64,000 nucleotides of DNA, taken from assembly GCA_973895155.1 (NCBI GenBank), contig OZ316894.1:3930944-3994943 (forward strand). The letters are read 5' to 3'. This stretch comes from Marsupella aquatica. Lineage: Eukaryota; Plantae; Marchantiophyta. Shown here piece after piece: positions 11,716 to 49,039 of this stretch. Made by a program: the position numbers and the translations under genes. How positions within the stretch are numbered: position 1 is the first letter of the stretch; each line of letters begins with the position of its first letter. The notes under the pieces are model-generated. The model ran no database searches and was not told where the DNA came from. It saw nothing but the letters and a program-made list of their open reading frames with translations.

Positions 11716-12048
11716 TGTTAAGGATTGCTCTTAGTCTTGTGACTCATAGGTTACGGCACTTAGGCTAACCACAGTTAGGATCTTAGCTGAGGTTAGGTTA
11801 GTCGTGTGTGACCTTGTATATACCAGGGCTAGTGTAAGCCGCTGGTGTGTGATGCTTACTAATGGTAACGGAGCAACTTGAGGAAGAGGGAGAGCATGTG
11901 TGTTCGTTTACTCTTGAAGTAAAAGCTTGAGTGTTCATGTGGACGTAGCCTTGGAGAAGAGGTGAACCACGTAGAGATTGTGTCGACTATGTGTGCATGG
12001 AATGAATCATGGTTGTATGGTCATTGCGAATGACGTCTTAGTTCAACA
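11716..12048 (+). repeat. 5' LTR of the copia element
   Basis: tgttaaggattgctc...ttagttcaaca is a direct repeat of 46378-46710. I count 7 substitutions by eye. Confidence 0.97.
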
Positions 12049-12050
12049 AT

Positions 12051-12662: not shown

Positions 12663-12766
12663 TTTAGGGTTTAGGGTTTAGGGTTTAGAGCTAGAGTTGC
12701 AAACGGTGCTAGTGCAATTCGGTAACATTTCCCATCGACCCTAAACCCTAAACCCTAAACCCTAAA
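12663..12766. repeat. Inverted pair of short plant telomere-repeat tracts in the copia leader
   Basis: (TTTAGGG)3TTTAG at 12663-12688 and (CCCTAAA)4 at 12739-12766. Confidence 0.9.
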
Positions 12767-17959: not shown

Positions 17960-18335
17960 AGGGCCCTTTATGACCAATCACCCAATGACAGAGATGAATA
18001 AATGACCAAAAGTTTTAATGACACAAAAAGAATGACGGGGGAATGACTGTCCACAATGACCAATAGACTGAAATGACAAAATGTTAATTTTTTCGTCATT
18101 TTGTATAATGTCTATAATGACTGATGCGACCAAAATGACCCAATTTCCCTAAATGGTCAATTTAGACACATGTCTTAAATGACACAATTAATAACAACAA
18201 TGATAAATCAGTGTTTAGCAACATTATAGTCACTCTGGACAATGACTGAAATGACCAAAAATCTATTTGCATCATTTTGGACAACGGTGATAAATGACAA
18301 AAAATGTATTATCGTCATTTTAACCAACGGTGTTA
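17960..18335. repeat. Left subterminal repeats of the outer CACTA (AATGAC/GTCATT in both orientations)
   Basis: Dense aatgac and gtcatt motifs directly inside the TIR, mirrored at 45437-46145. Confidence 0.85.
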
Positions 18336-18850
18336 AATGACAAAATTTAGGGTCAATCTGAAAATGAGAATATATCAGTGTTTACAACAACATATTGTCA
18401 TTATGGACTTCTGCCATAAATGACTAACTCTAGGGTCAATCTTGAAATTAGGACATATTAGTGTTTACAAGAACATACCGTCATTATGGACTTCTCTCAT
18501 AAATGACTAACTCTAGGGTCAATCTTGAAATTAGGACATATCAGTGTTTACAAGAATATACCGTCATTATGGACTTCTCTCATAAATGACTAACTCTAGG
18601 GTCAATCTTGAAATTAGGACATATCAGTGTTTACAAGAATATACCGTCATTATGGACTTCTCTCATAAATGACTAACTCCACAGTCAATCTTGAAATTAG
18701 GATATATCGGTGTTTTCAACAACATACTGTCCTTATGGACTTGTCGCATAAATGACTAAATATAGGGTCAATCTAAAAATCAGGATATATCAATGTTTAC
18801 AATAACATACAGTCATTATGGACTTATTACATAAATGACTACTTATAGAG
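18335..18850. repeat. 83-bp tandem repeat, about 6 copies
   Basis: aaatgac unit starts at 18335, 18418, 18501, 18584, 18667, 18750 and 18833, an exact period of 83. Confidence 0.93.
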
Positions 18851-18929
18851 TCATTAAAGAACCCAAGAGATATGAAGATTAAAATACTCAATAGTCATTC
18901 CAGACACCTATCATAATTGTAGAGTCATA

Positions 18930-21900: not shown

Positions 21901-22920
21901 ACACATGTTTTTGCATTTACTTAAGGCATGATGCACCTTGGGGAAATCACTCCCAAGTCATACAACTTTGGAGTGATTTGCCAAAAGTGTCACCATGGAT
22001 GCATACCACCGTATCCAAGCGCAAATGGAGCCATTTTTTGTCTCTCCAAGAAGTAGCGCAACACCAATGGAAGGTTGTCATCTTGTGATGTAATTGTGTC
22101 ATGTTTGTGCCGGTGTTTGGATGGGGAATACTCCATTTTGCATATGAATAGTGTCGGGGCATTGTGAGTAGGTGTTGTAATCTTCATTGGGTCATTTTGG
22201 AGGAATAGTGTGTCATTAATGCCAAAGACTACAGTAAGGGTCATTTTGGCAGTCCTTTTGGAAGTCATTTGTGCCAAATGACTCCATATGGGGTCATTAT
22301 AGAGGTCCCTCATGGTGTCATTACGGACCATCAGAAATGACCCTTTTGGGTCTAGGAGCTTAAGGTGGCCCTAGTGTGCCATGGGGCTCTACATGAAGGT
22401 GGCAACCTCTCCACAAGGTGCGGGGTACTATACCCACCGTACTATTCTCCAACCACTAGTTGCACCATGAGCACTTTGGAGCCATGTTTTTGCAATTACT
22501 TAAGGGATGATGCAACCTTGGGGAAATCACTCCCAAGTCATACAACTTTGGAGTGATTTGCCAAAAGTGTCACCATGCATGCATACCATCCCAAGGCATG
22601 CATACAAAAATTGTTTTTGTCTCTCCAAGAGGTATATAGTGCAATACTAGTGGAAGACTATGTCCTTCTATATAACTATGTCATGTTTGTGCCGATATTT
22701 GGATTTTGGATATATTCTATTAAATTCCAAAGGAATTGTAAAGGGGCACTCCGAGAGGTAGTATACTCTTCATTGGGTCATTTTCACATAATGTGTGTCA
22801 TTAATGTCAATGACTACAATAAGGGTCATTTTGGTAGTCAGTTAGAGGTCATTTGGAGCAATTGACTGCATATGTGGTCATTAGAGAGGTCCCTCATGGT
22901 GTGTCATTAATGGAAACACC
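18930..22920. repeat. About 578-bp tandem repeat, 6-7 copies, each with a conserved hairpin
   Basis: gaaatcactcccaagtc occurs at 19641, 20219, 20797, 21373, 21943 and 22523, giving periods of 578, 578, 576, 570 and 580. Confidence 0.93.
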
Positions 22921-24249
22921 TCAAATTAGGGTAATCTTGGTTGTCATACTAGAGGTCAGAAGTACCAAATGACTGGAAATGTGGTCTTTACAAAGGCTAT
23001 TGGGGGGTTCTCTTTGGAGGTACAAGGGAGTTCATTGGGTCATTTGTGAATTAAATGGTGCTTCAATCTGAGGACTAAACGTGGGGTCACTCACGCTGTC
23101 ATATTCGAAGCCATTAATGTTGGCATATTGGAGGTCATATAGTCATGGGAAGGCTCACTTATTAATGCTTTGGTGTAATGCTCTCAAAAACTCTTAGACA
23201 ACATAGCCTCATATGTAGTGGTCATGTAGCATGTAAGGGACCCTATAATTGTGCTTGAGTCATGAATGAGGGTTTCTCTCAATTGAGTCAGGAGTGGAGA
23301 GCTATTAAATGCTAATATTTGGATGAGTATCACTATCATATGGTGAGACAATAAGGTAGTCCAAAATGGTGTTCATGCATGCGGGTTATGGGTTTATATC
23401 GCGGGCATATATCGGACCTTTTATATCGCTAGCATCATTTTTTATATATAACATTGGTCCTTAACATTCTTGTTGGCACCTACACAAACAGCCATGACCT
23501 TATGGGGGGGGTCGTGACATTATGAGTTATTAACCTTGCCTTCCCTATTTAGGGCCTTATGGGGGCGTCCGGACCTTGTTATTAACCTCTATAGTCGGTA
23601 TTTCCCTAGGGCCTTATGGGGGGGGGGTTTACATTGTTATTAACCTAGTCTCAACTTCCCTAGGGCCTTATGGGGGGTCCAGACATGTGAGAGATATTGT
23701 CAGAATATAACCCTAATTAATGACCCACAATATCCACCATCCCCATCCAACAGAATACCTTACCTTTATGGGGTTTAGGGGTCCAGCATTAGGTTTTTCC
23801 CGCTAAGTGTTCTTGCGTACCAACAGGAGCCCTTTTTCCTGAAAAAACATCGAGAGGGCAACGCTCGATGTGCTCATTTCTTGGCATGCCTTTGTGTGCA
23901 CATTGCAAGGGCTTAGGGTTGCGCAGCGTTGTGCTCCATTCCACCAAGCTTCGACACCCTTCGAAGCGTTGGGCGAGGCATTGTTCGGGCAAGCATTGGG
24001 TGAGGCATTGTTTGAGTGAACCGTTGGACGTGGCATTGTTTTAGTGACCATTTGCAAGGTTTAGAGGAGGAGCTCCGACCCGAAGCCATTCAGGCTACAA
24101 TTGTTTTTGAGCTTGTTGCGCGCGGTCGGTGGAGCACCTCGGTAGGACTTGGGAGCTTCTTTGGAGGACCCTGCGCTTTGGAGGACATTCGGGCTTTGGA
24201 GTGCCCGATTGCAGGGTCAAGGCAATAGCTTCTTTACATTTGTCCTTGT

Positions 24250-24986: not shown

Positions 24987-26860
24987 GACGTGATGCGATG
25001 GAGCATCCTGGACGCGCACTGATTGAAGCAGTTGTGCGTGTCGTCAGCATTGTCATGGATTGGAGAAGGAAATCCCATAGAACTAGCCATTGCACTTTCT
25101 TGCACAATGCCTGCATTTCCTTCCCTGTACCATGCTAGCTCCACTGCGACCTTCCACTGCTATCTATGTTGATTCCTTCCACTGCTACAAAATTCTGCTT
25201 TGCAATGGCATCCCAATGCTCATATGTCCCAGTAAAATTCGGGTAGACATAAGTATTAGGCGCGGACTCTTCTCTCTCTGCCTGCCCAAGATCAGGGTTT
25301 ACTGGTTCTAATTGCTAATTCAGTCCCCATTTAGAAAGACCTAAGAAATTTAACTATCTTTGAGCTTTATTGTTTGTTTTGGCAAAATCTTCCCTTGCGG
25401 CCAGCAGCTGAGGCCCAGCGTCCACAATGTCCGATACATTTTTCAAGACATAAGTAAGCTGGCTGGGAAATGCCTTTCTCCTCAATCTCAAGAGATGATT
25501 TTTCTGGAGTCTGCTCACGTATTGCTCTTGCTTGTCCAGAACCTGAACGGCTATTTACCACAACTGAATCAAGTGCCCGAGTTCTGACCAAGTTGTCCTT
25601 TGTCTGTCTGCTGTTGATTTCTGATTGCTACTTGTTGGATTTGTCTGCTATGTTCAGTTCAGTTTGTTGTCTTGTTGTCGTCTGACAATCTTTGTGGTGC
25701 AAGGTGAGCTTGATCTCTTATTATTACAATGTAGTCCTTAGTTTTCCATTGTATGATGTTTTCCTTAGTCTGTCTATGTTCCTCAATGAATTGGTTTCCT
25801 TACTCTTCTTTTGACATCCCTCTGTATCATAGCCCTTTTCTTTTCTCTTTTTTTTACTGAAGAGAAGTGCAGGCATGTATGGTGAATCCTCACTTGATTC
25901 CAGCAGCGACTCTATAGAATTTTGTCGCCAAAAAGTTTCAGAGTTTCGTGTGTGGTTTGCCAACTGCTGTGCCACCTCAGAGAATTCCTTAGTGGCTTTT
26001 GTACAAGCCTTGCTCTTCAACTATGGTAATTTACAGCTAACTGTCTGATGTTCACACAACATCCATACACAACAATGAATACAACTCCATGAATACAGCC
26101 ACATGATTTCCTTTGGTCTGCAAACTGGACGAAACTAAACTAAAATCAGCTTGGTCAATTTTAAATTCTTCGTAAGGGTCTCTGACAGCAGCCCGGTATA
26201 GTCATTTGTGCACGAAGATAGAGTACGGTGCAGCTTTTGAAAAAGTGGGTGGACCAGCAGCTTGTTGAGAGTAAAGCAACTTATGGTTCTGTAACAGATG
26301 TGTGCAGCAGCTTAAGATGTAGAAGGCACACAATAAAACTTGATTTTTACAGATTTAAAAAAGGGCAGGGTGAGTGAGCACTGCATGTTGAACTCACAGG
26401 TCCGAATCTTGATTTGATTTCGCTGCTAAAATTCGTATCTCTTGCCTGAGTCCCAGTTTGCTGGAGTTTTGTTGCTCTCTGTGCTTTGTTGTGCACATTG
26501 TTGTGTTTGCTCTGTCCATTTTAAAACTTGAGAGCCAAATGAATGCTTTGCTGAAACTCAATTGCTATTTGTTCTGTGTTGCCCTTACAGATTTTAAAAA
26601 GGCAAGGTGAGTGAGCACTGCTGTACAGCAAGCAAAGGCATACAGGTTGCAATATTTGTGATTGCTTCCAATCATCTAGGCCAAGGTTATTTGCGCTGCT
26701 CAGTCCTAAATGCTTTGCCATCTATAAAGCATTGGTTTATGCTGCACCCTTGTGGTTACATGTCATATTTTATGCTGCACCCTCATTCTTTTGTGTCATA
26801 CTGCACCCTGTTATTCCTTCTTGTTTCACAATCTGATGTAGGGTCTGAGTGTGCAGGACC

Positions 26861-27520
26861 ATGGCTCGCAATAAGCAGAAGGCCATGAATCGTTGCAGAG
26901 GTGAATCCTCTCAAGCACCTCAATTGTCCTTATATTCAGACATTGAGATTAACCAGAATAGTCCACATGTATGTGCAATTTGTGATGAGGGAGGGGATCT
27001 CATTGTTTGTGATGGGCCTTGCCACCGACATTTCCATAAGAATGTTTCCTGTCCTTTGGGTCAGCAATGGCTATGCCCAACTATATCCCTCGCTGATGGC
27101 CATGTTGGAGAATGGCTTTGTGTTGATTGCAAGAATGAGGAACATTCTTGCTTTAAGTGCCATGTGTCTGGAAAAATTGGTGAAGAGGTAAGAAAATGTC
27201 CAGACTCTCTCTGTGCCCGGTTTTACTGTCGGCAGTGTTTGGTTCCTGGCACAGCATCATGTGGACTCCATATTTGTCTTACTTGTGGACAGGGGCCCAA
27301 TGATGGGGCTAATGGCTTTTTGGTTCAGTGCATGAGGTGTCCTAAGGCATGGCACAAAGACTGCCTGCTGTTTATCCAGCAGAGGGGATTTGCCCATGAT
27401 CGAACAATTTGGGATCACTCAGCGCATGGGCAGCCCAAGAAGGGGATGTTTTACTGTCCTGACCATGACATTGACCCTACACTAGGCACTCCTGCTAGGA
27501 GCCACATATCTTGGATTTGA
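26861..27520 (+). CDS. Stand-alone EDM2/NSD-type composite PHD-finger protein (219 aa) carried by the outer CACTA
   Basis: Uninterrupted ORF; the ATG is in an accATGG context just after a tgcag acceptor. CAICDEGGDLIVCDGPCHRHFH...CVDC.EEHSCFKC...CGLHICLTC...CMRCPKAWHKDCL...YCPDHDIDPTLGTPARSHI matches the EDM2 PHD module as I recall it, including the YCxxHxIDxxLxTPxRxH tail. Confidence 0.88.
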   Translation: MARNKQKAMNRCRGESSQAPQLSLYSDIEINQNSPHVCAICDEGGDLIVCDGPCHRHFHKNVSCPLGQQWLCPTISLADGHVGEWLCVDCKNEEHSCFKCHVSGKIGEEVRKCPDSLCARFYCRQCLVPGTASCGLHICLTCGQGPNDGANGFLVQCMRCPKAWHKDCLLFIQQRGFAHDRTIWDHSAHGQPKKGMFYCPDHDIDPTLGTPARSHISWI

Positions 27521-28117
27521 TTGAGGCTGGATGGAACACAAACTTGAAATAGAGCTTTTTGATGGTTTCACGTGGACTTAAACAATTTTCAGAGTGCTAA
27601 AACATGTGGACTATTTATATGCAGTTTGATGAACTCCTCATGTATACACACTCTACGACAGTGCATTGCGGATTGAGGCAATTAATTTTGAGAAATCAAC
27701 TTTATTATCTTTTCCAGGGTAGGATTCCGATTTTCAAGCATGTACTTTGAGTGTGACTTTCCTCCATATTGATGTCTAAACTTCACTTGTAAATTTGTCA
27801 CTGGTGTCACAAACGTTACTTATTCTAGACCTGTCTGCTCACATTCCTAATAGGCAAACAAATACTGGAAATGATGAAGCCACAGAGATTTACGTTCATA
27901 GTATCATTCTGATGACACTGTATGTGATGCTCTATTTGTATGCAAGGAGAAGGTGCCCTACTACAGTGGATTTGAGAAACTGGGCTCTGTGGGTTTGAGC
28001 AATTGGACTGTGGTTGGCATCGGTTGTACAACTGTGACGGTAGGCCCAATTTTGTATGCATGTCACTCTGATTAAGTTTGAAAATCATAGTTTGAATACA
28101 ATTTCAATCAAGCTAGC

Positions 28118-30911
28118 ATGGCACAATTGCCACAGAATACGTTAGGTGTGGGTAGAACTCCAAAGTTGCCGCTCTTCCATCCAGCTAGAGTACAACATCG
28201 TGATGATGCTTTGTGGGTTCGAGAACAGAAGGCCTGCCACAAGAGTGGGGACCATAAGATGTACTGCCCTTGTGTGAACTGCAAAGGGAATTATAGGACT
28301 AATCGGAATACTGCTAGACTGCACCTTATTAAACATGGTCGGTACCCTGCATGTCAAGTGTGGGTGGGAGAGGGACAGGACTCTTCTGATGAAGAGTGGG
28401 GTGCTGACTACATGCCACAACATGGCCCTGAGGCATTGAGGGTAGCAAACCTTCAGCAGGCAACCTGTGCACAACAGCCAATTGTAGATGTTGAAGAACA
28501 TTTATTTGTAGATGTTCCAGAGTATCCAACTGTGGATGTTCAAGAACATCCAACTATAGATGTCGAAGAACATATCAGGGCTCTACTGGAAGAAACGTTG
28601 CTGAGAACCAGTGAAGAATCCCCTGAGCATGAGCTAGATGATCAGGACCGTTTTGACTTGGATTTTGTACTTGGGGATGATGAGAGTGAAGGAGGTGCCC
28701 ATCCTGTAAACCCCCTTGAAACCTCCAAAACTCCTGTGGAGACTGATCCTGCACAGTTATCTTTAGATGCAGCAATGCAACCTTTGTTCCCAGGCAGCAA
28801 AATAGATGTTGTGTCATTCATGTTGCTTCTGCTGAACATCTGTCATGGCCATGGATTCTCAAACAAAGGAGTGAATGCATTGTTGTCTTTGATGGGGGAG
28901 CATGGTATGCCTACAGAGCATAATCTGCCCAAGAACTTATATGCTGCAAAGCAGCTATTGAGAAAGCTTGGCTTGGATTATGAGAGAATCCCTGTCTGTG
29001 AGAAAGGTTGTATGCTCTTTAGGGGTGAGAATGCCAAGTTAGAAAACTGTTTAGTGTGTCAGCAGCCCAAGATGAAGAGAGTGGGGAATTCATTACAGGC
29101 AAGGAAGGTAGTGCGGTATTTCCCTATAATTCCCAGGTTGAAGAGATTGTATGCCACTGCTGGTACATCTAAACTCATGACTTGGCATCATGAGAATAGA
29201 AGCACAGACAACATGGTTCGGCACGCAGCAGATTCAAAGGCTTGGAAGCATGTGGATACAAATATTGATCGGGAATTTGCAGCTGAACCAAGGAATGTGC
29301 GATTTGGGTTGGCACTTGATGGGGTGAATCCCTTTGGGAATAATTCCACAGCTTGGTCTACCTGGCCAATACTGTTGTTGAATTACAATTTACCTCCTTG
29401 GCTTACCACCAAGAAGTTCTTTGTCATGCTAGCTATGCTGATTCCAGGACCTGATTCAGTAACAGAGGAACAGCTAGACATAATATTGGGCCCATTCTAT
29501 GAGGAGTTGGAGCTGTTGTGGAAGAAAGGAGTGCCCTGCTTTGACAAATTGCCATGCCCAGGATTGTCTCAACACTTCAACCTTAGGGCTGTGCTATTGT
29601 GGACAATCAATGATTACCCTGCATATGGTTTAATATCTGGACAACAACACTCTGGATACAAAGGATGTGTCATCTGTGGACCAGAATGTGTGGCACGTGG
29701 TTCTAAGCACTTGCAGAAATTAGAGTACAGTGGCCACCGTCGATGGTTAGCAGCAAGGCATCTTTTTCGTAGACCAGATAGTGCACAATACTTTGATGGT
29801 GCAATTGAGAGTCGACCTGCACCGTGTAGAATGACAAGCTCTGATAGAAAGAAGTGGTCTGAAATGATGGCCATGCATCATTATATATTAGAGAATGAAG
29901 AGACAGTGGCTCCATGGTACAGGTACATAAACCCTAGAAACTCTCCTATCCTTAGGCATATGGATCATAATTATGTTGCCCCATTGTGTTTGTATATTCA
30001 TGGTGGATCGTGCACTAATGTCTTCAGTGTTGTTGTTGCCATGCAGGATATATGATGCTACCAATGAGACTGTTACCAAACAAAGAGTGGATTTCCGGAA
30101 GGAGTGGATGAGGAAGCCTGCCAATCGAAGAAAACCAGTGGAATTTCCCGTAGACTGCCAAGAATTGCCACCTTTCAGGGAATGGTTTCAAACATTAGTC
30201 AATACCCATAATTTTGAGAAAGAGTCTGAGCGGTCATTACTATCTGCATACTCCACACCACCTAGTTTGAAGGCACGACTGTATAGGGCATGTAGAGCCT
30301 ATGGGCACCATTGGAGGACTATTCCATCCTTGGGGTGTTTGAGTGATTGTGATTCTGGTGCTTTCAGCACTTTTGATTCTGGGATGGCTTCTACATTCAC
30401 TGAGAAGCGAGTGGACAGGTCTGGTGCAACCATAGAAGAATCTGTACAGTATGTAGGGGCCTTGACAGATATCTTGGTACTGAATTATGGCAGCTTGAGG
30501 AAAGAGGTGATTCTTTTCAAAGGGAAATGGGCAGATCCATCATGGACTCCTAAATCCTCTGCCAGTATGAGGTATACCAAGTCTGGTCTTTGGCAGGTGA
30601 ATTTCCATAGAGAACTGGGTGTGTCCAAGAAAATGGATTACGTTTTCCCAAAGCAAGTGGAGCAGGTTTTCTTCCACCCCAATGAGAAGGGGATAGCATG
30701 GAGAACAATCCTCCACAAAGAATCCAGGTCCACAAGGGTGTTAGGTGATTACACAGACATTGATTTCCATGCTACAATGGAAAACAATGCCAAATTACAC
30801 ATCGAATTGGCTAAGGCCTGTAGGTCCAGAGAAAATCCAGGACCAAGTACTGGTCCCAAACGAGGCAGAGATGCAGAGGGATCTGCAAGAAAGGGCAGGC
30901 CTAATCAGTGA
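28118..30911 (+). pseudogene. CACTA TnpD/Tnp2-type transposase of the outer element, internally deleted; exons 28118-29922 and 30047-30911
   Basis: N-terminal CPCVNC...HLIKHG, then VRYFPIIPRLK, VRFGLALDGVNPF and WTINDYPAYG. C-terminal LFKGKW...YVFPKQVEQVFF (DUF4216-like). A GT-AG intron at 29923-30046 joins the frames. The MHIE/KxHD/WMYxxER block is absent. Confidence 0.9.
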
Positions 30912-34182: not shown

Positions 34183-34399
34183 AAATAGCACTCTATCAAG
34201 AAACAATAGACATGATAGAATGACAACTCTGTTTTTCTATAAACATGCAGAGTGATTGGTATGTCAGGTTGTAACAATTGACAATCTAATATTATTGATG
34301 TCAATGTAATTTTGTTTCATAAATTTGCATTGAGTTCAATATTTACCGTGAGACTTATGAAGGTATCTTGTATGAATATCACACTACTACATATTTGCC

Positions 34400-34940
34400 A
34401 ATTTTGCGAAGGCGTTTTACAAGAGGAAGAAAGCTTTGCAAGATTAATCTCATCGCTAAACTTGCGATACGATATGCATTGCACTTAGCGAATCTACACA
34501 CATCGCAACACATAATTGCGAAACTTAGACCATCGCAACATTTTACCACACTTTAGGTATCGCAAAACATTTCCGAAGCAATTACCATTGAACAAGTTAG
34601 CGATCTTTACCGCTTCGCAAATTCATTGAGATGCGCCGGAAAACTAAATGGTTGCGAATATTTAAGCATCTCAAAATATTTTGCGAGTCTTATTGTCTCG
34701 CAAATGAGCGATGTTTGTGGAATATATGGCTAACTTGCGATAGTAATAGGCTCGCAAATCCTGTGCCTATCTAGGGTCTCATTTTGTGAATGTTTTGGTT
34801 TCGCAACTTTGAGATGGTGGTATCTTCGGAAGTTTGCGATGAGGGGATGATGGCAATTAGGGAGCAGTTAAGTATCGCAAATGTAGCGATGAGTTTGCGG
34901 GTGTAGGGGTTTCGCAAGATGTTTCGCAAAATATTATGAG
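34400..34940. repeat. Left subterminal TCGCA/TGCGA array of the inner CACTA
   Basis: Many tcgca, ttgcga and agcga motifs in both orientations, mirrored at 44790-45260. Confidence 0.85.
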
Positions 34941-35735
34941 CGCTTCAAAGAGGTGGAAAAGGAATGGGATTGGGGAGGGAGGGTAAAGGAGGGTGGATAC
35001 ATGTAATTTTTAGGGAGGGACAATGAAAAGGAGGAGGAAGGGAATGGGGCTAGGAGGGACAAGGAACGGAGGGATCCAAGAGGGAGGATACAGGTTTAGG
35101 GGGCACAAGGAAATGAGGGAGGAGGAAGGGTATGTGGATATAGTTTTAGGGAGGGTTTGGATTTAGGGAGTGAAAATAAAAGGAGGGAGTTTAGGGTTTA
35201 GAGAGGGACAAGGAAAGGAGGGAGGGTATTGGTTTAGAGAGGGACAAGGAAATGAGGGAGGTTTAAGGGTATAGGTTTAGGAGGGAGGAGAGAAGCTAGG
35301 TTGTATAGGTAAGAGTGGGGGACAGGGGTGGAAAGTAAGGAAAGTATAGGGTTGAAATAGAAAGCCAGGGGTTGGGACAAGGAGAGGAAGGAGGAAGGAG
35401 GGTTTAATAAGAGGGACAGACAATGAAAGAAAGGAGGAGGGAGGTGGGTACAAGTAATAAGGAGAATAGCTAGGGGGGGATTAGGAAAGCATGGAGGATA
35501 GAGGACTACAAGCAACATGAGTTTTCTTTGCATAAAGTCTACCAAAAGGTGTGGTGAGTGTGGGGTAGGGATGGGAGATATAGAAAACAACATTTGAAAA
35601 TGATATACTTACAAAACATAAGTTTATTGATAATTGAGAAGCACATATTTCTCCATTCTACCGAGAAGAGAAATCTTCATATCATCAAATCGAACTATAT
35701 ATCCGTGTAGCTATATATCCACAAACACAGACCCC

Positions 35736-38700
35736 TCAAACTTGGTCCTCATCATCTTCAGGTTGGGACACAACCAGAATATCAGGCTTTTCCCCAACGA
35801 TTGAACGAGACCGTGGCACATATGTGATGACAAGTGACCATTCCTCTGGGTTTGGGGGGTATGGAATATAGAAACATTGTTCCACATGACTTGGAAAAGT
35901 GAACGGCTCTGATGTTTGCCAATGAGATGGCTGGAAACTAGTGGCAGACGTCTTCAGTCGTGTAAATCCACACTCATCTTGAACCACAGTAGGATTGTTA
36001 CCTGCAAGGTTCACTTTGAACCACTTGCACTTGAAGACATACTCTTCAAACTTTGATTGTGCATCATAAGATATCACTAGAATCTCTTCTACCTTTCCAT
36101 AATGTGGCACAACATCTCGAATTATATTTGTGTCATGGCGACTGCTGCGGGAATCTTGAGAGAATTGTCCTTGAACTCCACAATCAAAGGTACGACCCCT
36201 CTTCTCATCAAGGGAAGAAATCCTAAAATCCATCAAACTATAAGGATATGTTACACAAAAATAGACACAAACATATTCCAATTAATTGAACACACCAAGA
36301 ATCTGCCTCTTCAATATACGTGCTTGTATTACAAATGAATTAAATTAAACCAAGTGATTCAAATCAAAGGTTACTAAGGTAGATGGAGATCACCTGAAAT
36401 GTCTTCCTTGTGTCCACATTGCTGTCCTTGTTGTAACCACTCTCAAGGGACCATGAACAATGGTACGAACATCATCTGTGATAGCCGGAAAATGTAATAC
36501 ACTCTCTCCCCTGACCACCATGTCATCCACCTCAACTAACTTCTCCTTCATATAGTCAAGGTACTTTGGAAAAATCCTTGGTCTTGTGCTGTTACTTTTG
36601 GCATCCTCATAGAAATCCCTCCATTCTTCCATGATAGTGTTGTTACTCAACATGAATGTGGTCAGTTGTTTCACCTCCACTGGTGTCAACATGCGAGTTT
36701 TCCTAGCACTTGTTAAACGATCCTCTTCATCTTCCCTCTCCTCTACCCAAGTACGGGGAGAGGTACAATCAATTGTGGCCAATATGTTACTACAATAGAA
36801 CATACTCTCAGCTGCTAAGTATCCTGTAGCCATGCTTCCCTCAACCCGTGCACGGTTACGTACATAACCTTTTAACACTGCCATGTATCGTTCTAGCCAA
36901 TACATCCACCGACAATGCACAGGACCTGCAATGGCCACCTCATGAACAAGATGAACAAGTAAATGCACTTGACAGTCAAAAAAGGAAGCAGGAAGGGCCT
37001 TCTCCAACTTGCATACCACCTCTGCTGCCAAAACCTCCATCCCAGGGATCTCATCAGTATATATCTCCTTAGAGCATACCCATCTCAATAGTTTTCCCAA
37101 TGACCAAAGGGCATCTTGCACTTCTTCACTTGCCAAACCTATTATGGCCACAGGCAATATGTGCTGCAATAACCTATGGTAGTCATGTGTCTTGAGATAC
37201 CTTGGCCACTTATGATTGTCCTCCATCCCAAAGGCCTTTCGGAGATTGGCACCATAACCAGTAGGAAACCGCATGTCTCCTATGCGATTCTGAAACTCCC
37301 TTCTCTGGCCAATAGGAAGCACCCATGGAGCTGAAGGTCGATGCTCGATCCCTGTGATAGGATCACTTATGACCCACATGTCTGGATGCATCTCAAGATC
37401 CTCACAAGCCTCCCTGAAGTTAGTGTCTTTCTCTCCATAGAAAGCCTTTATCAAAGCCTTTCCCATATTTCCCTCAATGTGCATGGGGTCTAATAGATGG
37501 CGGATCTTCAACTCACCCCAATAGGGCAAAGTGGTTAATATACTCCACCTTGTCAAGCCACTACTGTCAAATTGCATGGGATCCTCTGGGTCTACCACTC
37601 TTGCAGCCATGTCTTTCCAGTGTGTAAAAGTTGTTGGCTCAGGTACATCATGCTCGTCACCAAAGGGCATATCAATAGAGGAAAATAGTAGTGGGTCACG
37701 CCTCATCTGATGTCCCATTGGAAGAAACTTTGTATGCCCAAGATAAACAATCTTGCGAAGATGTGATGAATACTTGGCTACATCACCAAGGCTTGGGCCA
37801 CAAGTGGAGCAAGCCTTGTAGCCTTGGGTTTGCAACCCACTCACAAAGCCAAATCCTGGTCATATAAACACACATTATGTTAGGATTAGCACATGGAAAT
37901 GAGGGGATACCATGCATTAGAATATGATGCATTTAAACAACAAAGTTCTTACCTGGGTAGTCATGCATGGTCCACATACAAACCCCTTTGAGTTTGAAAA
38001 CCCGTGGGGTACCCCCTGTAGTCTTTCGACCATCATATGCCCATACTCCTTCCCATAATTTCTGGAGTTCCTGAACCAGTAATGTCAAATAGGTGTCCAT
38101 GTTCTTCACCTTCTTTGGCCCTGGGATAATCAAAGATAGCAACAAAAAACCCTTTTTCATGGACAACCATGGTGGAAGGTTGTAATTCATGAGAACCACA
38201 GGCCAGACCGATGTAGGTCTCCCCTTCCCTCCAAGTGAATGAGGGCTAACTCCATCTGATGCCAACCCCAGTCGCACATGCCGAGGGTCACGCTCAAAAT
38301 CTGGCCATGTTGATTCCACATGTTTATGAGCAGGAGAGTCAACTGGTAATCGCATGACACCAGGCTCCGAACGATGTTTCTTGTGCCATACCATCAACTC
38401 GGCCAAGTCAGAACATCTATACATGTGCAACAAGCGAGGAATTATGGGGAACCAACGACTGCTTTCCTTGGTACCTTCTGGGTTAGCATGTTTGGCTCAT
38501 ACCGTGGCTCATGACACACTGTGCATTCTGTGATATGGGCTGTATCCCCATGAAATAACATGCAATCATTCACACAGGCATGAATAATATGGTAATCCAT
38601 ACCAATGGATGAGAGAACCTTCTTTGCATCCTTCCAGGTCCCTGGCAACACATTCTCCGAGGGTAACATCAAGTCATGACAATATTCAAATATGTCTGAT

Positions 38701-40506
38701 AACATAGAATTGCTTATCTTGTGTTTGGCTTGAATGTTCAAGAGCCCCAATATGGCAGAAAGACGGCTCAACCGAGCACCCTCAAAAATAGGTGTTCGAG
38801 CATGTTCCTCTGCCTCTTTCCATTGTTGTTGTCCCTCTGGAGTATGTTGTGGCCGTGGGTCATTTGAAGGGCCAACCTCATGACCAATGTGAGGCACATC
38901 ATCCTCAACATCGGCACCAAACCAATCAACCATGAAGTCATCCATGGCTCTATCTTGATCATGCATGACCTGGTCATCAGTCCGAGGTGCGGCTTCCTCA
39001 TCAGCACCACCTACATCATTACTTGATGAGGAATCACCCTCTGATGGTTCTCCCTCTTCTGGCATACCCATCTCCCGATATGTTGCTCTCAACCTTCGTG
39101 GTAACATTTGTTGAGATGGTTGCGCATTCTATGCACATTACAACCAAAAAACCTCCTCATGTATATTTGACCAAGTACAACAAATTAAAATAGACTTAAC
39201 ACCATTCATTCAAGACATTAAGAATTAAAGTAAATGCATGGGCTAAAACCTTATTACTCCAAAATGAGCCCAAAGGCCATATATATAATAGTAAATGGGA
39301 AGTCCAAAATAGGTGCAAGAGGATAAAGGACATGATTTCCTAATCCCACTCATAGTGTGTGAATAACTCATCTCCTGCTCTAATGGTCCTAGTAGCAAGA
39401 ACTAAGCAATGGTCCTTATGATATGTCGTGCCATATGGTGCCGGCATTGGACCATCAGTAAAAACCCACTCACAATTGGCCCTACGCTTGGGCCGAGTCC
39501 CCACAGTACTATTTATGAAACCAGCAATATTCCCATTACGTATGGGATCACCATCTATCACCCGCTGCTCACTATACCTTCTAGTGCTACCATCAAAAGT
39601 ATCCATCTCTAGAGCATATGTTTTCCACTCAGGATGTTGTGCAAGGATCATGTTCCAATGTCTTCTCTTGTAGATGGGTCCACCGTATGGGAACAAAGTA
39701 GGACCCTCTCTACCACGAACACTTGACCCACCCTCCTCATCCATGATGATATCCTCACAAGCAAATACTCCATATCCATGTCTCTCTCCAAGTGTGGAAG
39801 TTTTCACAATCCAACGTCTACCCCAAACCACAATCTCCTCATCAAAATCTGTAAAATAAGGCAAGCCAAGAGTGATAGGTTCCCAATCCTTGATGATAGA
39901 GGCACACTTGCTAGTGAATGAACAAACACCCCACCTACCCTGAACTAGTGTTCTGGATGGGTCATTGGGTGCTCGTGGCCTCCTGTTGGATTGGGGCCTA
40001 GACCGGGGTCTTCGTGTCTCAGTGGGCACATGAGGGTGTTCCCCTTCTGTCCCATGACTGGTACTAATTCCCAAACCCAAGGCTTGTGAAAGTGCATTGC
40101 CTATAGCATCTAAAACTCCTTGTGATGGGACATAGGGTGGTGGTGTCACCAATCTACGCATACTGGATCCCTATTCCATGCAAACACCCACAAACAACCA
40201 AATGTGTAAACCATATGTGTAAACATTGATTCACCTCTAAAAATAACAGTAAAGAACGGCAATCAATTGAAACAAACTTACCATATGGGATGAAGAAGCC
40301 CCGGGAGTAAGACCTCTATGACGTCCATATCTCTCAATATGTTGAGCACACACATAAGATTTTTGAGAAATTTGGCCCACACATCTGGTGCAGTCATAAA
40401 GTCTTCGGGGTGGACCACGAGGACCAGTAATCTCGGGCTGAGGAGGAGGGGGTATATCATCATCGGAGGAGTACTCACTACTGGATAGTTCAGAGGACGA
40501 GGACAT
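35736..40506 (-). pseudogene. TnpD/Tnp2-type transposase of the inner CACTA; predicted exons 40506-40282, 39128-37953, 37855-36394 and 36222-35736; one frameshift near 38457
   Basis: Motifs VRLGLASDGVSP, WTMHDYPG, LDPMHIEGN, LKTHDYH, HLLVHLVHEV, WMYWLERYM, FKCKWF and EPFTFPSHVEQCFY. All three predicted introns are GT-AG and preserve frame. Restoring 1 nt gives VRWFPIIPRL. Confidence 0.9.
39340..40506 (-). CDS. SET-domain protein (putative lysine methyltransferase) of the inner CACTA; exons 40506-40282 and 40170-39340
   Basis: STLGERHGYGVFA (motif I), PYGG, IDG...GNIAGFINS...ANC (NHS-like) and LATRTIRAGDELFTHY (ELxxDY-like). No post-SET cysteines. The SET exon is uninterrupted, and a phase-0 GT-AG intron at 40281-40171 links it to the upstream exon. 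Confidence 0.85.
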
Positions 40507-40639
40507 ATCCACTGCCACATTACATTGCATGTAGGGCATGATTAGGAAAAATTAGGCCATATATAAAGCGATTTAAAAAAAAATGAACTCAAAAAACAAT
40601 TAGGTTGGTTTATACATGGGGTTTTATTACCCTTTTATA

Positions 40640-41680
40640 TTTGTTAGCATGAAACCCAAATTAAGGTGAGTGTCATGCAAGAAGAAACCACATTATAACC
40701 TTTGGGAAAATTGTAATACCCTATGTCCTAAGTGAGGTTAGATTATTACCTGAATGAGACCCGGGCTCAACAGTGCCTATAGGTCACGTGGCTTTTGGAA
40801 CATTTGCCAAATCTAGAAGTAGGAGGAAAATACTGGAAACAAAATATAAGTTTGGATGGTAATTAGCAGCCGTCAAGTTGTGGAATCTTAGACATTTACC
40901 CACATATATCATGGCACAACAAAGAAGGGCAAGCATAAAAATCTGTACTAACAACATTGACTGTATACATGATGTTATACCTTTTAGATGCCCGGGTTCC
41001 CACAATGCATATGCATTAGACAAAAGTTGAGGTAGTAGTGTTGGCCCTGCGTTGTATCATGATTACATGGGTTTTCCCCTCAATTGTTAGCATAAAACCC
41101 TAAACCCTAAACCCTTATCCCCCCTCGAGTGAAAGGTGAGTGTCATGCAATAAAAACCCACCCTAGACCCCTGGGAAAACTCTAAAGGCCTAAGCCCAGA
41201 ATGAAGTTGGACAATAATTACCTGAATGAGATCCGGACTCAATAGTGCCTGTAGGTCGTGTGGCTCATTGAACATGAGCTGAATCTAGAAGCACGAGGGA
41301 AAATACTGGAAACAAAAAAGTAAGTTTGGATAGCCATTAGCTTCTCTCAAGTTGTAGACCCCCAAACATGTGCATATAGATATTCTTGCACAACAAAGAA
41401 GGGCAAGGTTTATGAACAATCTCTTTATCAAACCCTGCTAACATACATGTTTAAATATACCTTTTAGATGTCCGGGTTCCCACAATGCATATGCATTAGA
41501 CAAAAGTTGAGGAAGCAGTGATGGTCCTGCACTGGATCATGATTACATGGGATTTCCCTCAATTGTTAGCATAAAAACCAAAACCTCATCCCGCTTCAAG
41601 TGAAAGGTGAGTGTCATGCAATAAAAACCCACCATAGACCCTTGGGAACTCTAAAAGCGTAAGCCAATGAAGTTAGCAAA
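40640..41680. repeat. About 450-480 bp tandem duplication, about 2.3 copies, in the divergent-promoter region of the inner CACTA
   Basis: ttgttagcat...aaggtgagtgtcatgcaa occurs near 40641, 41084 and 41563. cccacaatgcatatgcattagacaaaagttgagg occurs twice. Confidence 0.85.
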
Positions 41681-42418
41681 AACCTAAATGGTCAATTCCC
41701 TTCAACCATCCTATGCTTCTCTCTACCATAATTATATGCCACCCCTCTTGGTTACCCTCCTAAGATACCATAAAAGTAACCCAAGATACTATAAAACTGA
41801 AACCTCTCTTTCAAACCCTCCTAAGTTGGCCTAAACCCCAAAACCCAAAACATAAAACCCCTCCTAGCTCTTACCCTCCAATACATATAACCCCAACCTT
41901 CATAAATAAAACCCCCCTGCAAACCCAAAACATAAAACCCCTCGTATCTAAGCCAATCTAAGCCCAACCTTCACAAAAGAAACCCTCCCCTAACCAGGCC
42001 AAACCCCCTCCTCTTACCCTGCAATATAACTCCTTCAATTTTCTAACCCCCCCAATCCTTATCTCATCACATCCCACTAAAATGCAACATAATCCTCTAC
42101 ATCTACCCCATTTAATGTTCATAAGCCCCCTTAGTATCCCTAACAACACATCAAATACGCATGCGAGACGGGGGTTATGGCAAAACCAAACAGCGAAGGC
42201 TTTTGCGAATCTTGAAGCTTCGCAAAGATAGAATTTGCGAAGCTTTTTGCGAAGGCCGATGCATCGCAAATTGCGATGCGAAACGAATCGCAAAGCCCAA
42301 TATTTTGAATCCTTATGGATTGCCAAGCGCGGACAAGGCGGATTCAATTCATTCAGGCCTGAGGAGAGCAACGAGGGCAAGGGCGGAGCGATGGCGAGCG
42401 AAGAGGGGACTGGTGGTG

Positions 42419-44544
42419 ATGGAGGAGCTTCTGGCAGCAGCGGAGGCAACCGAGGGGGGGGGGGATCGATTGAAGGCGATTGTGGATGAGCATTTTTCGG
42501 TTGCACAGTTGAGTCAAATTGATTTCACCAGTCCAGCAGGGCTGGCATCATTGAGTGCCCTTCTGGGCCAAGCCTTGCAAGCAGGTCTCACTGCAGGGCA
42601 AGCAGCAGTGGAGGAGGATGCAAGGAAGGCAGCAGAGCAGGCGGCTGCTGAGAGGAAGCGAAAGAGGGACGAGAGAGCTCAAGCTGGAGTGCTCTTGCCT
42701 CAAGCATTGGAAAAGAAGAGGAGGAAAGATGAGAGAGACCTGATCAGGAAACAGAGGGAGGAGCAAAGAAAGAAGGAGGCAGCAAGGAGGAAGCTGCCTC
42801 TGATTACTTTAGAGGATGAGGGGATTCCCACCGAGCTTGCTTACAATGGGGCCAAGAGCACAATCAGGCACATTGTATCCACAAATTTTGCAAGAGGAGT
42901 CGAGTGGGGCACTCGCTCAAAGGCAGAGCAGAAGCGAGTCATCAATCAGGTGAAAGATGCATTTCGAAATGGAGGAGAGATGGATTCACAGTGGCTTGCT
43001 GACAAAATTTCAAACTCCATGTCACAAGCTAGATACCATGATAGAATGAAGATCAGGTCTCACCTTAGAGATTTGGAGGAGTATAGGAATTTGCAGAGGC
43101 CGCTGCAATTCTCATAAGATATCTGGCAGGCCTTCTACCAGACAGAGGTGAAGTTGAAAGCAGCCAGGCTCCTCAATGATTTCACAGAGAAGCTGACAAA
43201 GGCTCAAAGGGCAAAGGAGGCCGGGAAGTCTGACCGGGACCTGAAGGTGATGGAGCAGAAGGTAGCCCAGCTCCAGCAGGTTGTAGCAGAAGTAGGCGAT
43301 CCACCCAACAAGTTCCTGAAGGCAGCTGAGCGAGTCCGAGACAAGCCCAACATCACCCACAAGCTGGGTCAAGGTGGCCTCCCCGGCCTCAAAGCAGCAT
43401 TCGTGAGTGCACCTCCCTCTCCTCCCTTGACTTCTTGCTACTCCAATTCGTATTCCAACACACCTGCAATGAGCCAACTCTTTCTTGCATTTCCACCAAG
43501 TAGTTACAATTAGACTTGTTGTGTCAGATTAGGTCACGTACAGTTGCTTCCCTCTCGGGTTTTTGCCATGACAGAGTTTGCGATACATTTGCGATGCGGG
43601 TAGCTTCGCAAATCCTTCGCAAACCTTATTATGCCCTTTTTTTGCTTACGTTTGTGAAGGCGTTGCGAAGACGTTCGCATTGCAACCAGCTTCGCAAACG
43701 TAATTGTCCTTATGATTGCGAAGCTGGCGCCTTCACAAAATTTCAAAAATTTGAATTTTTAAATTTTCCGATCGTTTAAGTGTTCTTTGAGGGTCTTCCC
43801 CATATATGCCACCCTCCATAACCCCAAAACCTTGATGCACCACCCCACCAGCCCCAACAAACCCCCTAATTTTTAGAAGCCATGTGAATCGGGTTATGGG
43901 TTGGTGTTAACCCAATTGTGCTGGTTTTGTTTTGGCTTAGTACAAGAGGTACAAGAGGAAGATTACGGCGGCTGAGATGGAGGTGGGCCAGAAACATGGG
44001 AAGGAGCATCTCTTTCAGCAAGTTGATGAATTATTGGTGAGAATTTTTAGGTTATTACATTCATTGCAATTTTGAATGAATATCTCTTTTGTTCACACTT
44101 GTAAAGAATATGAGACTAACAGACACCCTGGTTTGCTAATGGAAGCAGGGAGGGGAGGATGGTGACTCCCATACCGAGGGTGGCACCGATAGTAGTGATG
44201 AGGATGTGGAGGGGACAGGGGAGGGGAGCACAGCTCCTGCTACTCAAGCCAGGCCAACTAGCACTGGAGACCAGTCATTTGCATCAGCACGTTCCAGTGG
44301 TGCTAGGGGTGGTAGCGCGGCAAGCCAGGGCGGTGGAGGTGGGGATGAGGATGAGGATGAGGATGAGGGTGACCCCGAGGGTGACCAAGAGGAGGAGGAA
44401 GTCCAGATTGCACCCCCCCCCAAGAGCACACAAGGGCAAGGAGAAGGCCAAGGGGAAGAAGGCAAGGAGGGGCAGGAACACTCCTTTCTAGCTCGATGTA
44501 GACAAGTTGTAGCTAGAGCACTTACATCGAGTTCACATGTATAG
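42419..44544 (+). pseudogene. Probable TnpA-like accessory gene of the inner CACTA, divergent from TnpD; exons about 42419-43402, 43941-44035 and 44149-44544; premature TAA at 43115
   Basis: Coiled-coil/basic N-terminus, RPLQFS*DIWQAFY, ITHKLGQGGL (resembles the HxxGxxG of Ptta-type proteins) and an acidic Gly-rich tail. gtgag donors and ag acceptors are present. Confidence 0.65.
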
Positions 44545-45436
44545 CGATCAGCATGCATGGCCGTGGCACTTTACCTAAGGGTTTTTACCCTTCCATTTTG
44601 TAACTTTTGTACTTTTTCAGTAATGCCATTTTAATTGCGGCAGACTGGGTCAACATCACTTTCATCCCTCCTTCAAAACCCATGAATGGTCTCCCTCACC
44701 CTCACCCTAACCCAAATACACAAAAACCCATGAAATATACATTTTGTGAAGCTTTTGAGAACCAACCCCCATCTCAAAGACCCACGGTGAACGTATCGCA
44801 ACCATTCCGAGGAGAAACGCATCGCAACACTTGCGATGTTGTCTAAATCACAACCCTAGCGAAGACTTCCTCTCCACATGTTTGCGAGTTAAATGCCTTC
44901 GCAACAAAGCGGTCATCCACTTCTCGCAATCTTACGAGTTTGTTTGCATCGCAAGTTATAGAGAAATTTAACATCGGAAATTGCGATGTAAATGTTATCG
45001 CAACGCGAGCGATTCATTTGTTCTCGCAAAATAATGAAATTTGTCGTTTCTCAATATTTGCAAGGACAGTGCCGTTGCAACGTTGCGGAGATGTTGCGAC
45101 GTATTTAGAATCGCAAGTTGCGAAGTAGTTGCGAAGGGCCGTTTGCGAAGAATTTGAGATGGGAAGTAGCGAATACGTTGCGATGCGAGTAAGTTCGCAA
45201 ATTGGGTATTTCGGATTTTGTTTCCTTTGTATGATGCGAAGGGTGGTGGTTCGCAAAAGAGGTGCATAGTGTTGTAGTGTCAATTGGATTTGTGATATAT
45301 ATCGAATGTTTCTTTAAGTTTTCATTCAGCAAATCTATTGAATGGCTTTGTAATGTATGATTTTTGATTGACATCAAGTTTTATCTATCATGATCACTTA
45401 AATTTGAATTTCTCCAAATCATTGAATACTTCGTCT

Positions 45437-46377: not shown

Positions 46378-46710
46378 TGTTAAGGATTGCTCTTAGTCTT
46401 GTGACTCATAGGTTACGGTACTTAGGCTAACCACAGTTAGGATCTTAGCTGAGGTTAGGTTAGTCGTGTGTGACCTTGTATATACCAGGGCTAGTGTAAG
46501 CCGTTGGTGTGTGATGCTTACTGATGGTAACGGAGCAACTTGAGGAAGAGGGAGAGCATGTGTGTTCGTTTACTCTTGAAGTAAAAGCTTGAGTGTTCAG
46601 GTGGACGTAGCCTTGGAGAAGAGGTGAACCACGTAGAGATTGTGTCGACTACGTGTGCATGGAATGAATCATGGTTGTATGGTCGTTGCGAATGACATCT
46701 TAGTTCAACA
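46378..46710 (+). repeat. 3' LTR of the copia element
   Basis: Direct repeat of 11716-12048, followed by the TSD ATGCA. Confidence 0.97.
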
Positions 46711-49039
46711 ATGCAATGGCCAAACAAACTTGAGACTGGGACCCATGTGATTGGTTTGGGATTAACCTCGGGATTAACTTGGATTGGGCCAAACTTATTT
46801 TCCATTTTGATTGAAATTGTTTGGATGGTGAACGGGAACTTTCCAGCCTGTGGATGGGGGTATTAGACAAAATACTCAATCATGTTTTTGGCCAGGGATC
46901 CCTTTGGATATGCAACTCTTGTATAATAGGCAGGGTCTACATTTTTATATAGACTAAAAGTTTGGGTAAAAAATAAATTTAAAAAGCTGGGCTTTCCACT
47001 TAATTTTTTTTTGAGTCATATCTAAAGTTTGATTTGTTAGTTTTCCATGTAGGATTAGTCAATACGTCATGGTGATCCTTAGTAATGGCATGTCATCTTG
47101 ACGTCTTTCAGGTTCAAGGTCATCAAGTCGTCAAGTTACCAAGAAAATTGGTTTGGAAATGTAATTGAAACTGGCTGCAATGGTAAGGAGACCGTTTACA
47201 GGTCACATTTCCAGTCAAAAGTGTAAAATGATTAAATGTTTAGACTTTCTAAGTCAGTTCAAATGTTTTGAGCAAGTCCATCCAAGCTTTGCTAGGTCCA
47301 TCTGGGCTTCATATATAGACAACGTGGAGGTCCATCAGGGCACTACATATATACATCTAAAGTTTTTCCATATCAAAACAAGTATGTTTGTTTTTTAAAC
47401 TAAGTTATATTTTGAAATCCTTGAATTGAAAGGTACAAGAGTTTGGTAGACTAAAATGACACTTCACATGGTCAATTGAATATAAAGCCACTATAATGAA
47501 TCAAAGGCTTGCATTATAAGAAAAGGGAGTTGTTTATCCAAGGGGGAGTCATCACACAACCAAGTATTGTTACACCAATGACCACATGGATGTAATGAGT
47601 CTACATGCACACTGATGTAATCAGTCCAAAGGCAAACCCAGTAGTATCAAATTTGCAGATGTATGCTTGCTGGTTTTGTAAGCATGGTCTCTCCATCCCA
47701 CCATTCATAAATTTGTCTCAAACATTCGAGCCCATTCAGATTGCGGAAAATCAAATGCAGATTTAAAGTGATCCAATGACATAATAGAGCATTCGCGTGG
47801 CTTCAAATTAAAGTCTTTTAGACCTACAGTAGCCTTCCATCAATTTCTGACCTAACAAGTTTCAACCAAGCCCTGAGCTAAACTCCCATGACATTGTATT
47901 TGAGTTTTGATTATCTATTTTCTAATTGGTATTTGAGTTTTGATTATATATTTCATCTTTTGTACTTGCAGGGTGTTGTGTCATAATTTTGCCATTGTGT
48001 TCAAATATTGGGGTTGTCATATGTTTGCTAACTTAACGACAACGCTCGGGTGTCTTACTTAGCTTATAAATCTTACTTATAAGCATCAACCACAAGCTAG
48101 AATTTAGACCTAGGCTTCTAGAGTGAAACCTCTAGACAGTAACTTCATGGCCCACCATGTGGATAGGAAAATTCATGGCTATGGTGTATGTCAAATGATA
48201 ATACATGATTTTTGTTTACATCCAAAAAATGTACTCTATGGCCCCACCATAATATATGTGCGTAGAAAGAGTGATGTGCATGAAAAGAAGGATGATATGT
48301 ATGTATGATTATTAAAATGCTAATCATGTCTCCCGGTTGGGCGCTCTTTCCTTTGTGGAGTGTGATAATTTATACTATATATGATATGATAATTGGTTTT
48401 TTATCATTCTCTTAACCTTCAAAGGATGTGAATGAGGAATCTCCTTTGGTGACACTTTTATTGAACTCTCCGCTAGTCACTATCAAAGGGGCTAGTTGTG
48501 TTAAATAAACATTCTCTTCTAATTTAATACACTATCAAAGGGGCTAGTTGTGTTAAATAGACATTCTCTTCTGATTTGATATGTCTTTTCTCATGGGACC
48601 CACCAAAATTTCCCGGATTTCGAACACACAGACATGGCGATGTGTTAGGAGACAGCAACGTTGCTTTGATTGACGATATGGCCTGCAACCGAGAGCAGCT
48701 GCCGATTGTATATATGGGCAGGAATGGTCACCCTGCCATTGCAAGAATTGCCAATCACGTAATCTGCTGAACACGACGATGTCTTCAGTGACCCGAATCC
48801 GACTCACACCACATTGACAAAGGCGGATATAGTCAGATGTCCACAAAATCGTCTTTGGAAAAGCGCAGATGCTCGTATATGCTCGTATTCCAACCGCCGC
48901 CGGATCTAAGAATTGTAAAGAAGTGGGCACGACAGCAAGTAGTGTGGAAATTACGAAGTTGTTCTGCGTGTTGGGTTGATGGTGAGGGTCATCCTGATAC
49001 TAGCTTCGTTCCTGTGTCCACCTCAGTGCATGTCGTCTG

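Follow-up and report, generated by a model that had tools for sequence, protein, structure and literature searches.

Does the transposase gene of a CACTA transposon in Marsupella aquatica also yield a SET-domain enzyme that begins with the transposase's own first coding exon? The question is raised by a locus in a 64,000-nucleotide stretch of DNA, the whole of which was analysed and is called the window here. In the inner of two nested CACTA elements, coding exon 1, a SET exon, and the TnpD transposase follow one another on the minus strand (Table 1). The termini of the inner element, CACTACTACA at 34382 and CACTACAACA ending at 45279, are CACTA-type inverted repeats alike at 9 of 10 positions, and a 3-bp target duplication, TCA, flanks them (34379-34381 and 45280-45282). 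With these ends, its Tnp2/TnpD domains, and its subterminal repeats, the element is of the CACTA/En-Spm type. TCGCAA occurs at 30-34 per kb in both subterminal regions (34383-34950 and 44750-45279), and a further rich stretch lies at 43560-43760. The TCGCAA-rich parts of the element carry 30-41 copies per kb, compared to 0.1-0.6 per kb elsewhere. Pfam identified Transposase_21 (PF02992, E 2e-40), DUF4218 (PF13960, E 3.5e-33), and DUF4216 (PF13952, E 3.3e-8) in TnpD, and its C(2)C and H(3-4)H motifs were both found, as CSTC and HLLVH. The inner element represents a transposon family in which a conserved SET exon separates coding exon 1 from coding exon 2 of TnpD, and the exon 1-SET-TnpD layout recurs in related moss and liverwort elements.

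Table 1. Features of the inner element and of the outer element around it (window positions; a slash marks an exon boundary).
Feature	Position	Strand	Details
Outer CACTA element	17946-46166		CACTAG ends, CAA duplication; inner element inserted in it
Outer TnpD	28091-30911	+	PF13963 motif and core share a single ORF
Inner CACTA element	34382-45279		10.9 kb; identified from sequence
TnpD exon 4	35736-36222	-	DUF4216 and stop
TnpD exon 3	36394-37855	-	End of Transposase_21, DUF4218
TnpD coding exon 2	37953-39128	-	Acceptor CATAG/AAT to donor CAG/GTAAGA
Spacer	39129-39339	-	211 nt, 43% T; 136-147 nt in related loci
SET exon	40170-39340	-	Stop TAG; frame intact in the window
Predicted intron 1	40171-40281	-	111 nt, 45% T, in-frame stop at 40237
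C-x-C-x2-C-x13-H-x4-GR motif	40321-40398	-	Found by profile, alignment, and model
Coding exon 1	40506-40282	-	225 nt, 75 codons; phase-0 donor ATG/GTAAGT
Two tandem sets of short exon-like units	40750-41526	-	Conserved AG/GT ends
TCGCAA cluster	42150-42320		Between the element's two genes; from motif density
Second gene	42419-44544	+	Head to head with the SET/TnpD unit; exon limits approximate

The sequence-only reading had proposed that an exon at 40506-40282 ends at a phase-0 gtaagt donor and that acceptors at 40170 and 39128 are both in frame with it. These coordinates proved correct, with 225 nt followed directly by GTAAGT and both frames open. Joining exon 1 to 40170 (AATAG/G) gives an in-frame product of 351 aa that ends in the SET domain, and joining it to 39128 reads in frame into NAQPSQQMLPRR, the transposase. 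In-frame AGs are common by chance: in 40281-38900, products longer than 150 aa result from 23 different AGs when these are joined to exon 1. Such frames alone therefore prove little, and it is conservation that carries the proof. Read-through of intron 1 was ruled out by the in-frame stop and by the intron's length of 116-118 nt in most loci (101-118 nt across the compared copies).

We next compared the window with 36 loci from a scan of metagenome contigs. SET served to pick out these loci, which by design excludes any copies without it. Most belong to one Sphagnum-type lineage about 75% (74-76%) identical to the window; among six loci compared with one another, five were 93-96% alike, and L005 formed a separate lineage at 78-79%. 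Locus counts are not independent, as they represent one lineage at 93-96% identity plus L005. For this reason, the independent comparisons for the donor and the SET acceptor are the window, the Sphagnum-type lineage, and L005, and those for the TnpD acceptor are the window, the Sphagnum-type lineage, and the lineage of run X5. Exon 1 lay upstream of SET in all 18 loci with room for it, the TnpD start lay downstream of SET in 20 of 21, and the head-to-head second gene was found in related loci too.

Both acceptors were conserved across these copies, the SET acceptor in 25/27 loci and the TnpD acceptor in 20/21, and the donor GT was kept in 21/21. Two other AGs in intron 1 were kept in 0/25 loci. 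In the spacer, five of the six other AGs were kept in 0/21 loci and one, at 39196, in 19/21. Among 97 GT sites in 40520-39060, the one at 40281 alone was both strong and conserved (7/7 loci); it scored 6.4 and the next TnpD donor 6.8 with an approximate matrix. As there is no second strong donor, a transcript probably yields either the SET or the TnpD product and not both. The middles of intron 1 and the spacer aligned with those of L006 at 45/85 and 60/191 positions, indicating that the predicted splice sites are conserved against a background of diverging introns. In L005 both the donor and the SET acceptor are retained, and a 6-nt indel before the internal Met preserves the frame. In run X5, eight contigs read T11-CCATAG/AAT AAG TGG CCC on the minus strand, with the same register at the TnpD acceptor. 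Several diverged contigs cease to match at 40276, the final base of the donor hexamer, and X5 has a loose end at 39116.

By simple pairwise counts, the median dS between the window and the loci was 0.7-1.5, and dN/dS was 0.11 in the exon-1 motif (codons 29-75), 0.46 in the linker, 0.22 in the SET core, 0.07-0.27 across TnpD, and 0.14 in the second gene. These ratios indicate that purifying selection acts on exon 1, SET, and TnpD.

Gene models uniting exon 1 and SET were found in Sphagnum jensenii, S. troendelagicum, S. tenellum, S. fallax, S. balticum, S. compactum, and Calypogeia fissa. The join was present in 8/16 database proteins examined and in 5/5 Sphagnum SET models examined, and 15 of the 22 SET relatives with a long N-terminus carried the motif. 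Five distant motif carriers at 33-44% identity comprised four Riccia models and one Logan protein. None of five proteins examined joined exon 1 straight to TnpD. The proposal of a shared exon with two acceptors was thus upheld by comparative conservation and by the gene models joining exon 1 to SET, and the junctions themselves are what we infer.

These models also bear on an alternative, in which SET lacks the zinc module and comes from a gene of its own nested in TnpD, while exon 1 serves TnpD only. SET would then be made from its own promoter, or from leader exons spliced straight to 40170, and be translated from a Met behind the acceptor. A Met lies 4-6 codons behind the SET acceptor in the window, in Sphagnum-type loci, and in L005, many 263-aa database models begin there, leader exons with good donors lie upstream, and the motif is absent from 7/22 long SET relatives. 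However, three lineages have an acceptor that continues the exon-1 frame, and the L005 indel before the Met is in frame. Models of 343-351 aa unite both parts in five Sphagnum species and Calypogeia, distant relatives, including the assembly-contig protein P0115, hold motif and SET in one chain, and an intron 1 of merely 101-118 nt offers scant promoter space. We consider this alternative unlikely. The comparative evidence points instead to one transcript with a single exon-1 donor, likely spliced either to the SET acceptor or to the TnpD acceptor, and we hold it quite probable that both joins are in use.

Exon 1 encodes a Ser/acidic stretch followed by the Cys/His motif, and includes LYDCTRCVG...CAQHIERYGR. 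It was 79% identical to a Calypogeia model over 58 residues. The sequence-only reading had drawn a parallel between this motif and the N-terminus of the outer TnpD. The likeness was confirmed, in a weak form, and a direct Pfam match did not appear. The two motifs align without gaps, and the outer one passes the PF13963 cut-off. A profile of nine SET-linked motifs, which was seeded by the Cys pattern and is tilted to Cys-rich matches for that reason, was run against 1286 window peptides and ranked the outer TnpD first of the non-self ones (E 0.0015, with the runner-up at 0.049). Exon 1 gave no Pfam match in the window copy or in three locus copies, and the Riccia protein P0144 touched PF13963 at E 0.031, under the cut-off. 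The motif at the N-terminus of the outer TnpD is missing from the inner TnpD exon that begins at 39128; joining 40282 to 39128 would place the motif 294 codons before the TnpD core, compared to 314 in the outer element. These results suggest that the exon-1 motif is likely the element's transposase-associated, PF13963-like zinc module.

A structural model of the module (pLDDT 70) had two short strands and one helix. Foldseek matches had E values of 2-10, with zinc-finger entries in 10/11 rows, and VIA returned 2 of 48161 chains at Z 2.0-2.2. The model thus hints at a faint resemblance to C2H2 fingers. Because that likeness is so faint, DNA targeting by the module is a guess; the sequence-only reading had suggested that it could take SET to the element's own DNA or to the transpososome.

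The SET exon encodes a low-complexity linker of about 70 aa, a family-specific pre-SET segment, and a SET domain at 39777-39352. PF00856 (27.2 bits against a cut-off of 22.4) was the only Pfam family in it; an adenine methylase fused to SET, as in Plavaka PAG2, was looked for, and the exon carried the SET family alone. The Atlas search placed the protein with SET clusters (0.97), and 97 relatives were found among 1.84 billion representatives. In PDB, a profile search gave a best E of 0.14 and a single-sequence search 0 matches. An AlphaFold model (27 rows, pLDDT 73) matched SET domains in Foldseek at E about 1e-7, and VIA gave Z scores of 10.8-10.1, with 10.8 for EZH2 and SET8 (rmsd 2.8-2.9 over 118-125 aligned residues), 10.6 for Set1, and 10.3 for SET7/9. 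The top fold rows lie within 1 Z of each other at 18-26% identity, and no mark subfamily leads.

SET enzymes are recognised by the GxG, YxG, NH, and ELxxxY motifs and a catalytic Tyr. Here GxG, YxG, the Asn of NH, and ELxxxY were retained in most of 138 homologues (G132 in 108/116, G134 in 112/116, G164 in 112/117, N220 in 99/115, and E268 in 88/92), and the Tyr at the catalytic position, Y273, was kept in 84/92. The usual NH is NS in this family, with Ser in 102/114. Pfam found no recognised chromatin-reader domain in the SET product, which also has no post-SET cysteines. The 351-aa exon 1-SET product is predicted to be a zinc-module-SET lysine methyltransferase.

Starting from the observed layout, signals, selection, and fold, we infer how the gene may work, from the two joins and polyadenylation to enzyme activity and target. 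One primary transcript would offer one donor to two competing acceptors. The SET exon would be an alternative last exon, chosen when a 3' end forms in the 140-210-nt spacer; the signals that end SET messages and the TnpD acceptor CATAG must both lie there. As candidate poly(A) signals, the window spacer contains AATAAG, AATGAA, and TGTA, and TGTA alone recurs among related loci. The module common to the SET form and TnpD may bring the enzyme to the element's chromatin, where it would most likely methylate a histone lysine and keep the element transcribable. Each SET message would cost one transposase message, damping activity. The SET exon may derive from capture at a long-standing intron position that follows the N-terminal module of the transposase. 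We give a probability of roughly 0.6 to both joins being in use together with a chromatin-directed role for the SET enzyme. A more specific version is put forward tentatively: an old bryophyte CACTA lineage in which a splice and poly(A) switch behind the zinc-module exon would yield the transposase or, alternatively, a lysine methyltransferase targeted to the element so as to reset its chromatin. In the spacer, GTTAAG at 39196 on the minus strand is kept in 19/21 loci. Used as an acceptor it would give a shifted or closed frame; it is possibly a branch or 3'-end signal.

The sequence-only reading had also linked the choice between proximal and distal polyadenylation to host EDM2. In Arabidopsis and rice, the ASI1-AIPP1-EDM2 complex acts where introns contain heterochromatin and promotes the use of distal poly(A) sites (PMC9292364); such an action would tip the balance towards the transposase form. 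A literature search combining the EDM2 complex with bryophyte names found no paper, and the link to the SET/TnpD choice was not supported.

The same two splice forms could also serve another end. The SET enzyme may act on a non-histone target, with TnpD, the product of the second gene, and a host silencing factor as candidates, or the short form may mainly compete with TnpD via the shared module. That no histone-mark family is ahead in sequence or fold, that post-SET cysteines and a recognised reader domain are missing, and that NS replaces NH would all fit. Yet the best fold matches are histone lysine methyltransferases, the SET genes of other transposons are thought to act on chromatin (PMC12730594; 10.1101/2025.02.11.637652), and the outer element holds an NSD-type PHD cluster as a second chromatin-type cargo. 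A non-histone or purely competitive role appears improbable to us, and we favour the chromatin-directed role.

A transposase message running from exon 1 through a truncated SET into TnpD via an internal SET donor, as one fusion in SETMAR-like order, is very unlikely: six models that reach TnpD do pass through part of SET (P0021 and P0223 from Sphagnum; P0131, P0147, P0152, and P0209 from Riccia), and ATT/GTGAGT at 39473 is kept in 6/7 loci, but the models differ in their junctions, several lose the C-terminal ELxxxY of SET, the 39473 donor scores 0.8 against 6.4 for the exon-1 donor and, being phase 1, is out of frame with the conserved phase-0 TnpD acceptor, its letters are fixed by conserved C-E-W codons, and the SET stop and C-terminus are conserved. 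A weak first search for SET relatives of 484-2000 aa, which also speaks against the fusion, found none; a later search gave a 773-aa model.

The exon had been described earlier as a shared first exon. The sharing is well supported by comparison; non-coding exons probably precede the exon, and we therefore call it the first coding exon. Upstream of it, exon-like units lie at 41526-41461 and 41046-40981 and at 41305-41222 and 40832-40750. They are doubled in the window and found in related loci, and are likely non-coding leader exons, as judged from their conserved ends. As coding exons they were ruled out by stops and by lengths varying over 65-85; the P0223 model nonetheless reads part of one unit. 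An AG five bases ahead of the exon-1 ATG is present in only 10/17 loci. Leader exons at these positions would place the promoter near 41550-42300, where it would serve the head-to-head gene as well. A tandem duplication of about 470 nt (78% alike, 40663-41674) doubles both leader-exon-like units, and the two leader-like units have a common GGCACTGTTG-AGCCC-like core. The second gene was assigned to no family by Pfam or Atlas; flanked by TCGCAA clusters, it is a candidate TnpA-like binder of TCGCAA motifs.

We also examined the state of the window's copy. The first motif Cys is Tyr in the window copy only (Cys37Tyr), and contigs of all five runs (X1-X5) read Cys at 40397 at full listed depth. 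TnpD is frameshifted near 38457, so that the window copy cannot make full TnpD, and four runs hold contigs with one more base there. The second gene has a premature TAA at 43115-43117, where 9/9 loci read GAA. The window copy is decayed or misassembled at these three places, and its SET frame is open.

Near-identical sequence was abundant in the five runs. Their contigs were continuous through introns (for example 40075-40370 and 39094-39368), and none of the contig joints listed for the five runs corresponded to 40282 to 40170, 40282 to 39128, or the ordinary introns of TnpD. For both reasons, the run contigs behave as DNA and are uninformative on expression. Among those listed, none skipped the SET exon (largest skip 311 nt); contigs drop rare forms.

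We then compared the inner element with known systems. Alternative splicing of En/Spm into TnpA and TnpD was reportedly described by Masson in 1989. In maize En/Spm and Arabidopsis ATENSPM3, TnpA and TnpD come from one alternatively spliced gene (PMC13547354; 10.64898/2026.08.24.746577). The inner element is alike in being a CACTA element with one unit whose alternative splicing is predicted to yield an accessory regulator as well as a transposase. It differs in that the alternative product is a SET enzyme and not the DNA-binding TnpA; SET sits between TnpD coding exons and would share the N-terminal module of TnpD, and the second gene is separate and head to head.

Repbase Reports is said to hold entries on the SET cargo of HarbingerS and MuDR elements. 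SET cargo is reported in HarbingerS and oomycete MuDR elements (PMC12730594) and in Helitrons and the red-algal Plavaka PAG2 of the EnSpm superfamily (10.1101/2025.02.11.637652). These systems share with the inner element a DNA transposon with conserved SET cargo and a proposed chromatin modification. The HarbingerS, MuDR, Helitron, and Plavaka SETs are described as separate accessory genes, and that of PAG2 is fused to an N6-adenine methylase, whereas the SET of the inner element is an exon inside a land-plant Tnp2-type transposase gene.

VANC of VANDAL elements and TnpA of Spm resemble the present case in combining an element-encoded factor with clustered short motifs (TCGCAA here) and a possible self-directed chromatin change. 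VANC and TnpA are sequence-specific binders that remove DNA methylation, whereas the cargo of the inner element is a predicted writer enzyme. CSB-PGBD3 has an alternative 3' terminal exon that is in frame and sits within an intron (PMC2268245), and the inner element is alike in this respect. SETMAR is alike in having SET and a transposase in one locus, but the inner SET and the transposase core are predicted in separate chains. In CSB-PGBD3 and SETMAR, both from primates, a host gene captured a transposase, whereas here the SET exon belongs to a mobile element. Transposons with SET cargo and alternative splicing of En/Spm transcripts are each known already; no example of the two together, with a SET exon that lies in a plant TnpD gene and uses the same first coding exon, turned up in the literature searched, with Repbase, subscription journals, and preprint supplements outside the search.

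In the literature consulted, the plant transposon anti-silencing proteins VANC and TnpA are binders, and the SET cargo of oomycetes and red algae is described without a tested function. If the more specific version put forward above is true, a transposon-encoded histone writer would act as an anti-silencer in land plants, coupling chromatin state and transposition in one gene. A real switch would further show that capturing an exon behind a transposase module can create an accessory enzyme, and would make transposon cargo of many genes annotated as 'SET domain-containing' in Sphagnum and liverwort genomes. The SET family is small, intact, and strongly conserved, with many copies in Sphagnum and liverworts, which makes transposon-written histone marks testable in transformable bryophytes.

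Named SET relatives come from Sphagnum, Calypogeia fissa, and Riccia sorocarpa, and the Sphagnum-like and Calypogeia SET proteins are 67% identical. Between 35736-43430 of the window element and loci L001-L036, dS is 0.7-1.5 and the introns are still alignable. The low dS, the alignable introns, and the 67% SET identity hint at horizontal transfer among bryophytes.

The window also contains spliced genes and retroelement remains. In the outer CACTA element, an intact ORF at 26849-27520 on the plus strand encodes NSD2/NSD3-type PHD fingers (PHD_NSD, PHDvar_NSD; PDB E 2e-10), which presumably resemble the PHD fingers of EDM2. This ORF lies just before the outer TnpD, a reader cargo beside the writer-type cargo of the inner element. 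The left part of the outer element (18334-23100) holds tandem arrays of units of about 83 nt and about 570 nt with internal palindromes. The outer element lies in turn inside a Copia-like LTR retroelement with 335-nt repeats 98% alike (11716-12050 and 46378-46712) and gag/pol ORFs at 13792-17884, making three nested layers in all. A short run of the plant telomere repeat CCCTAAA was found interstitially at 12739-12766.
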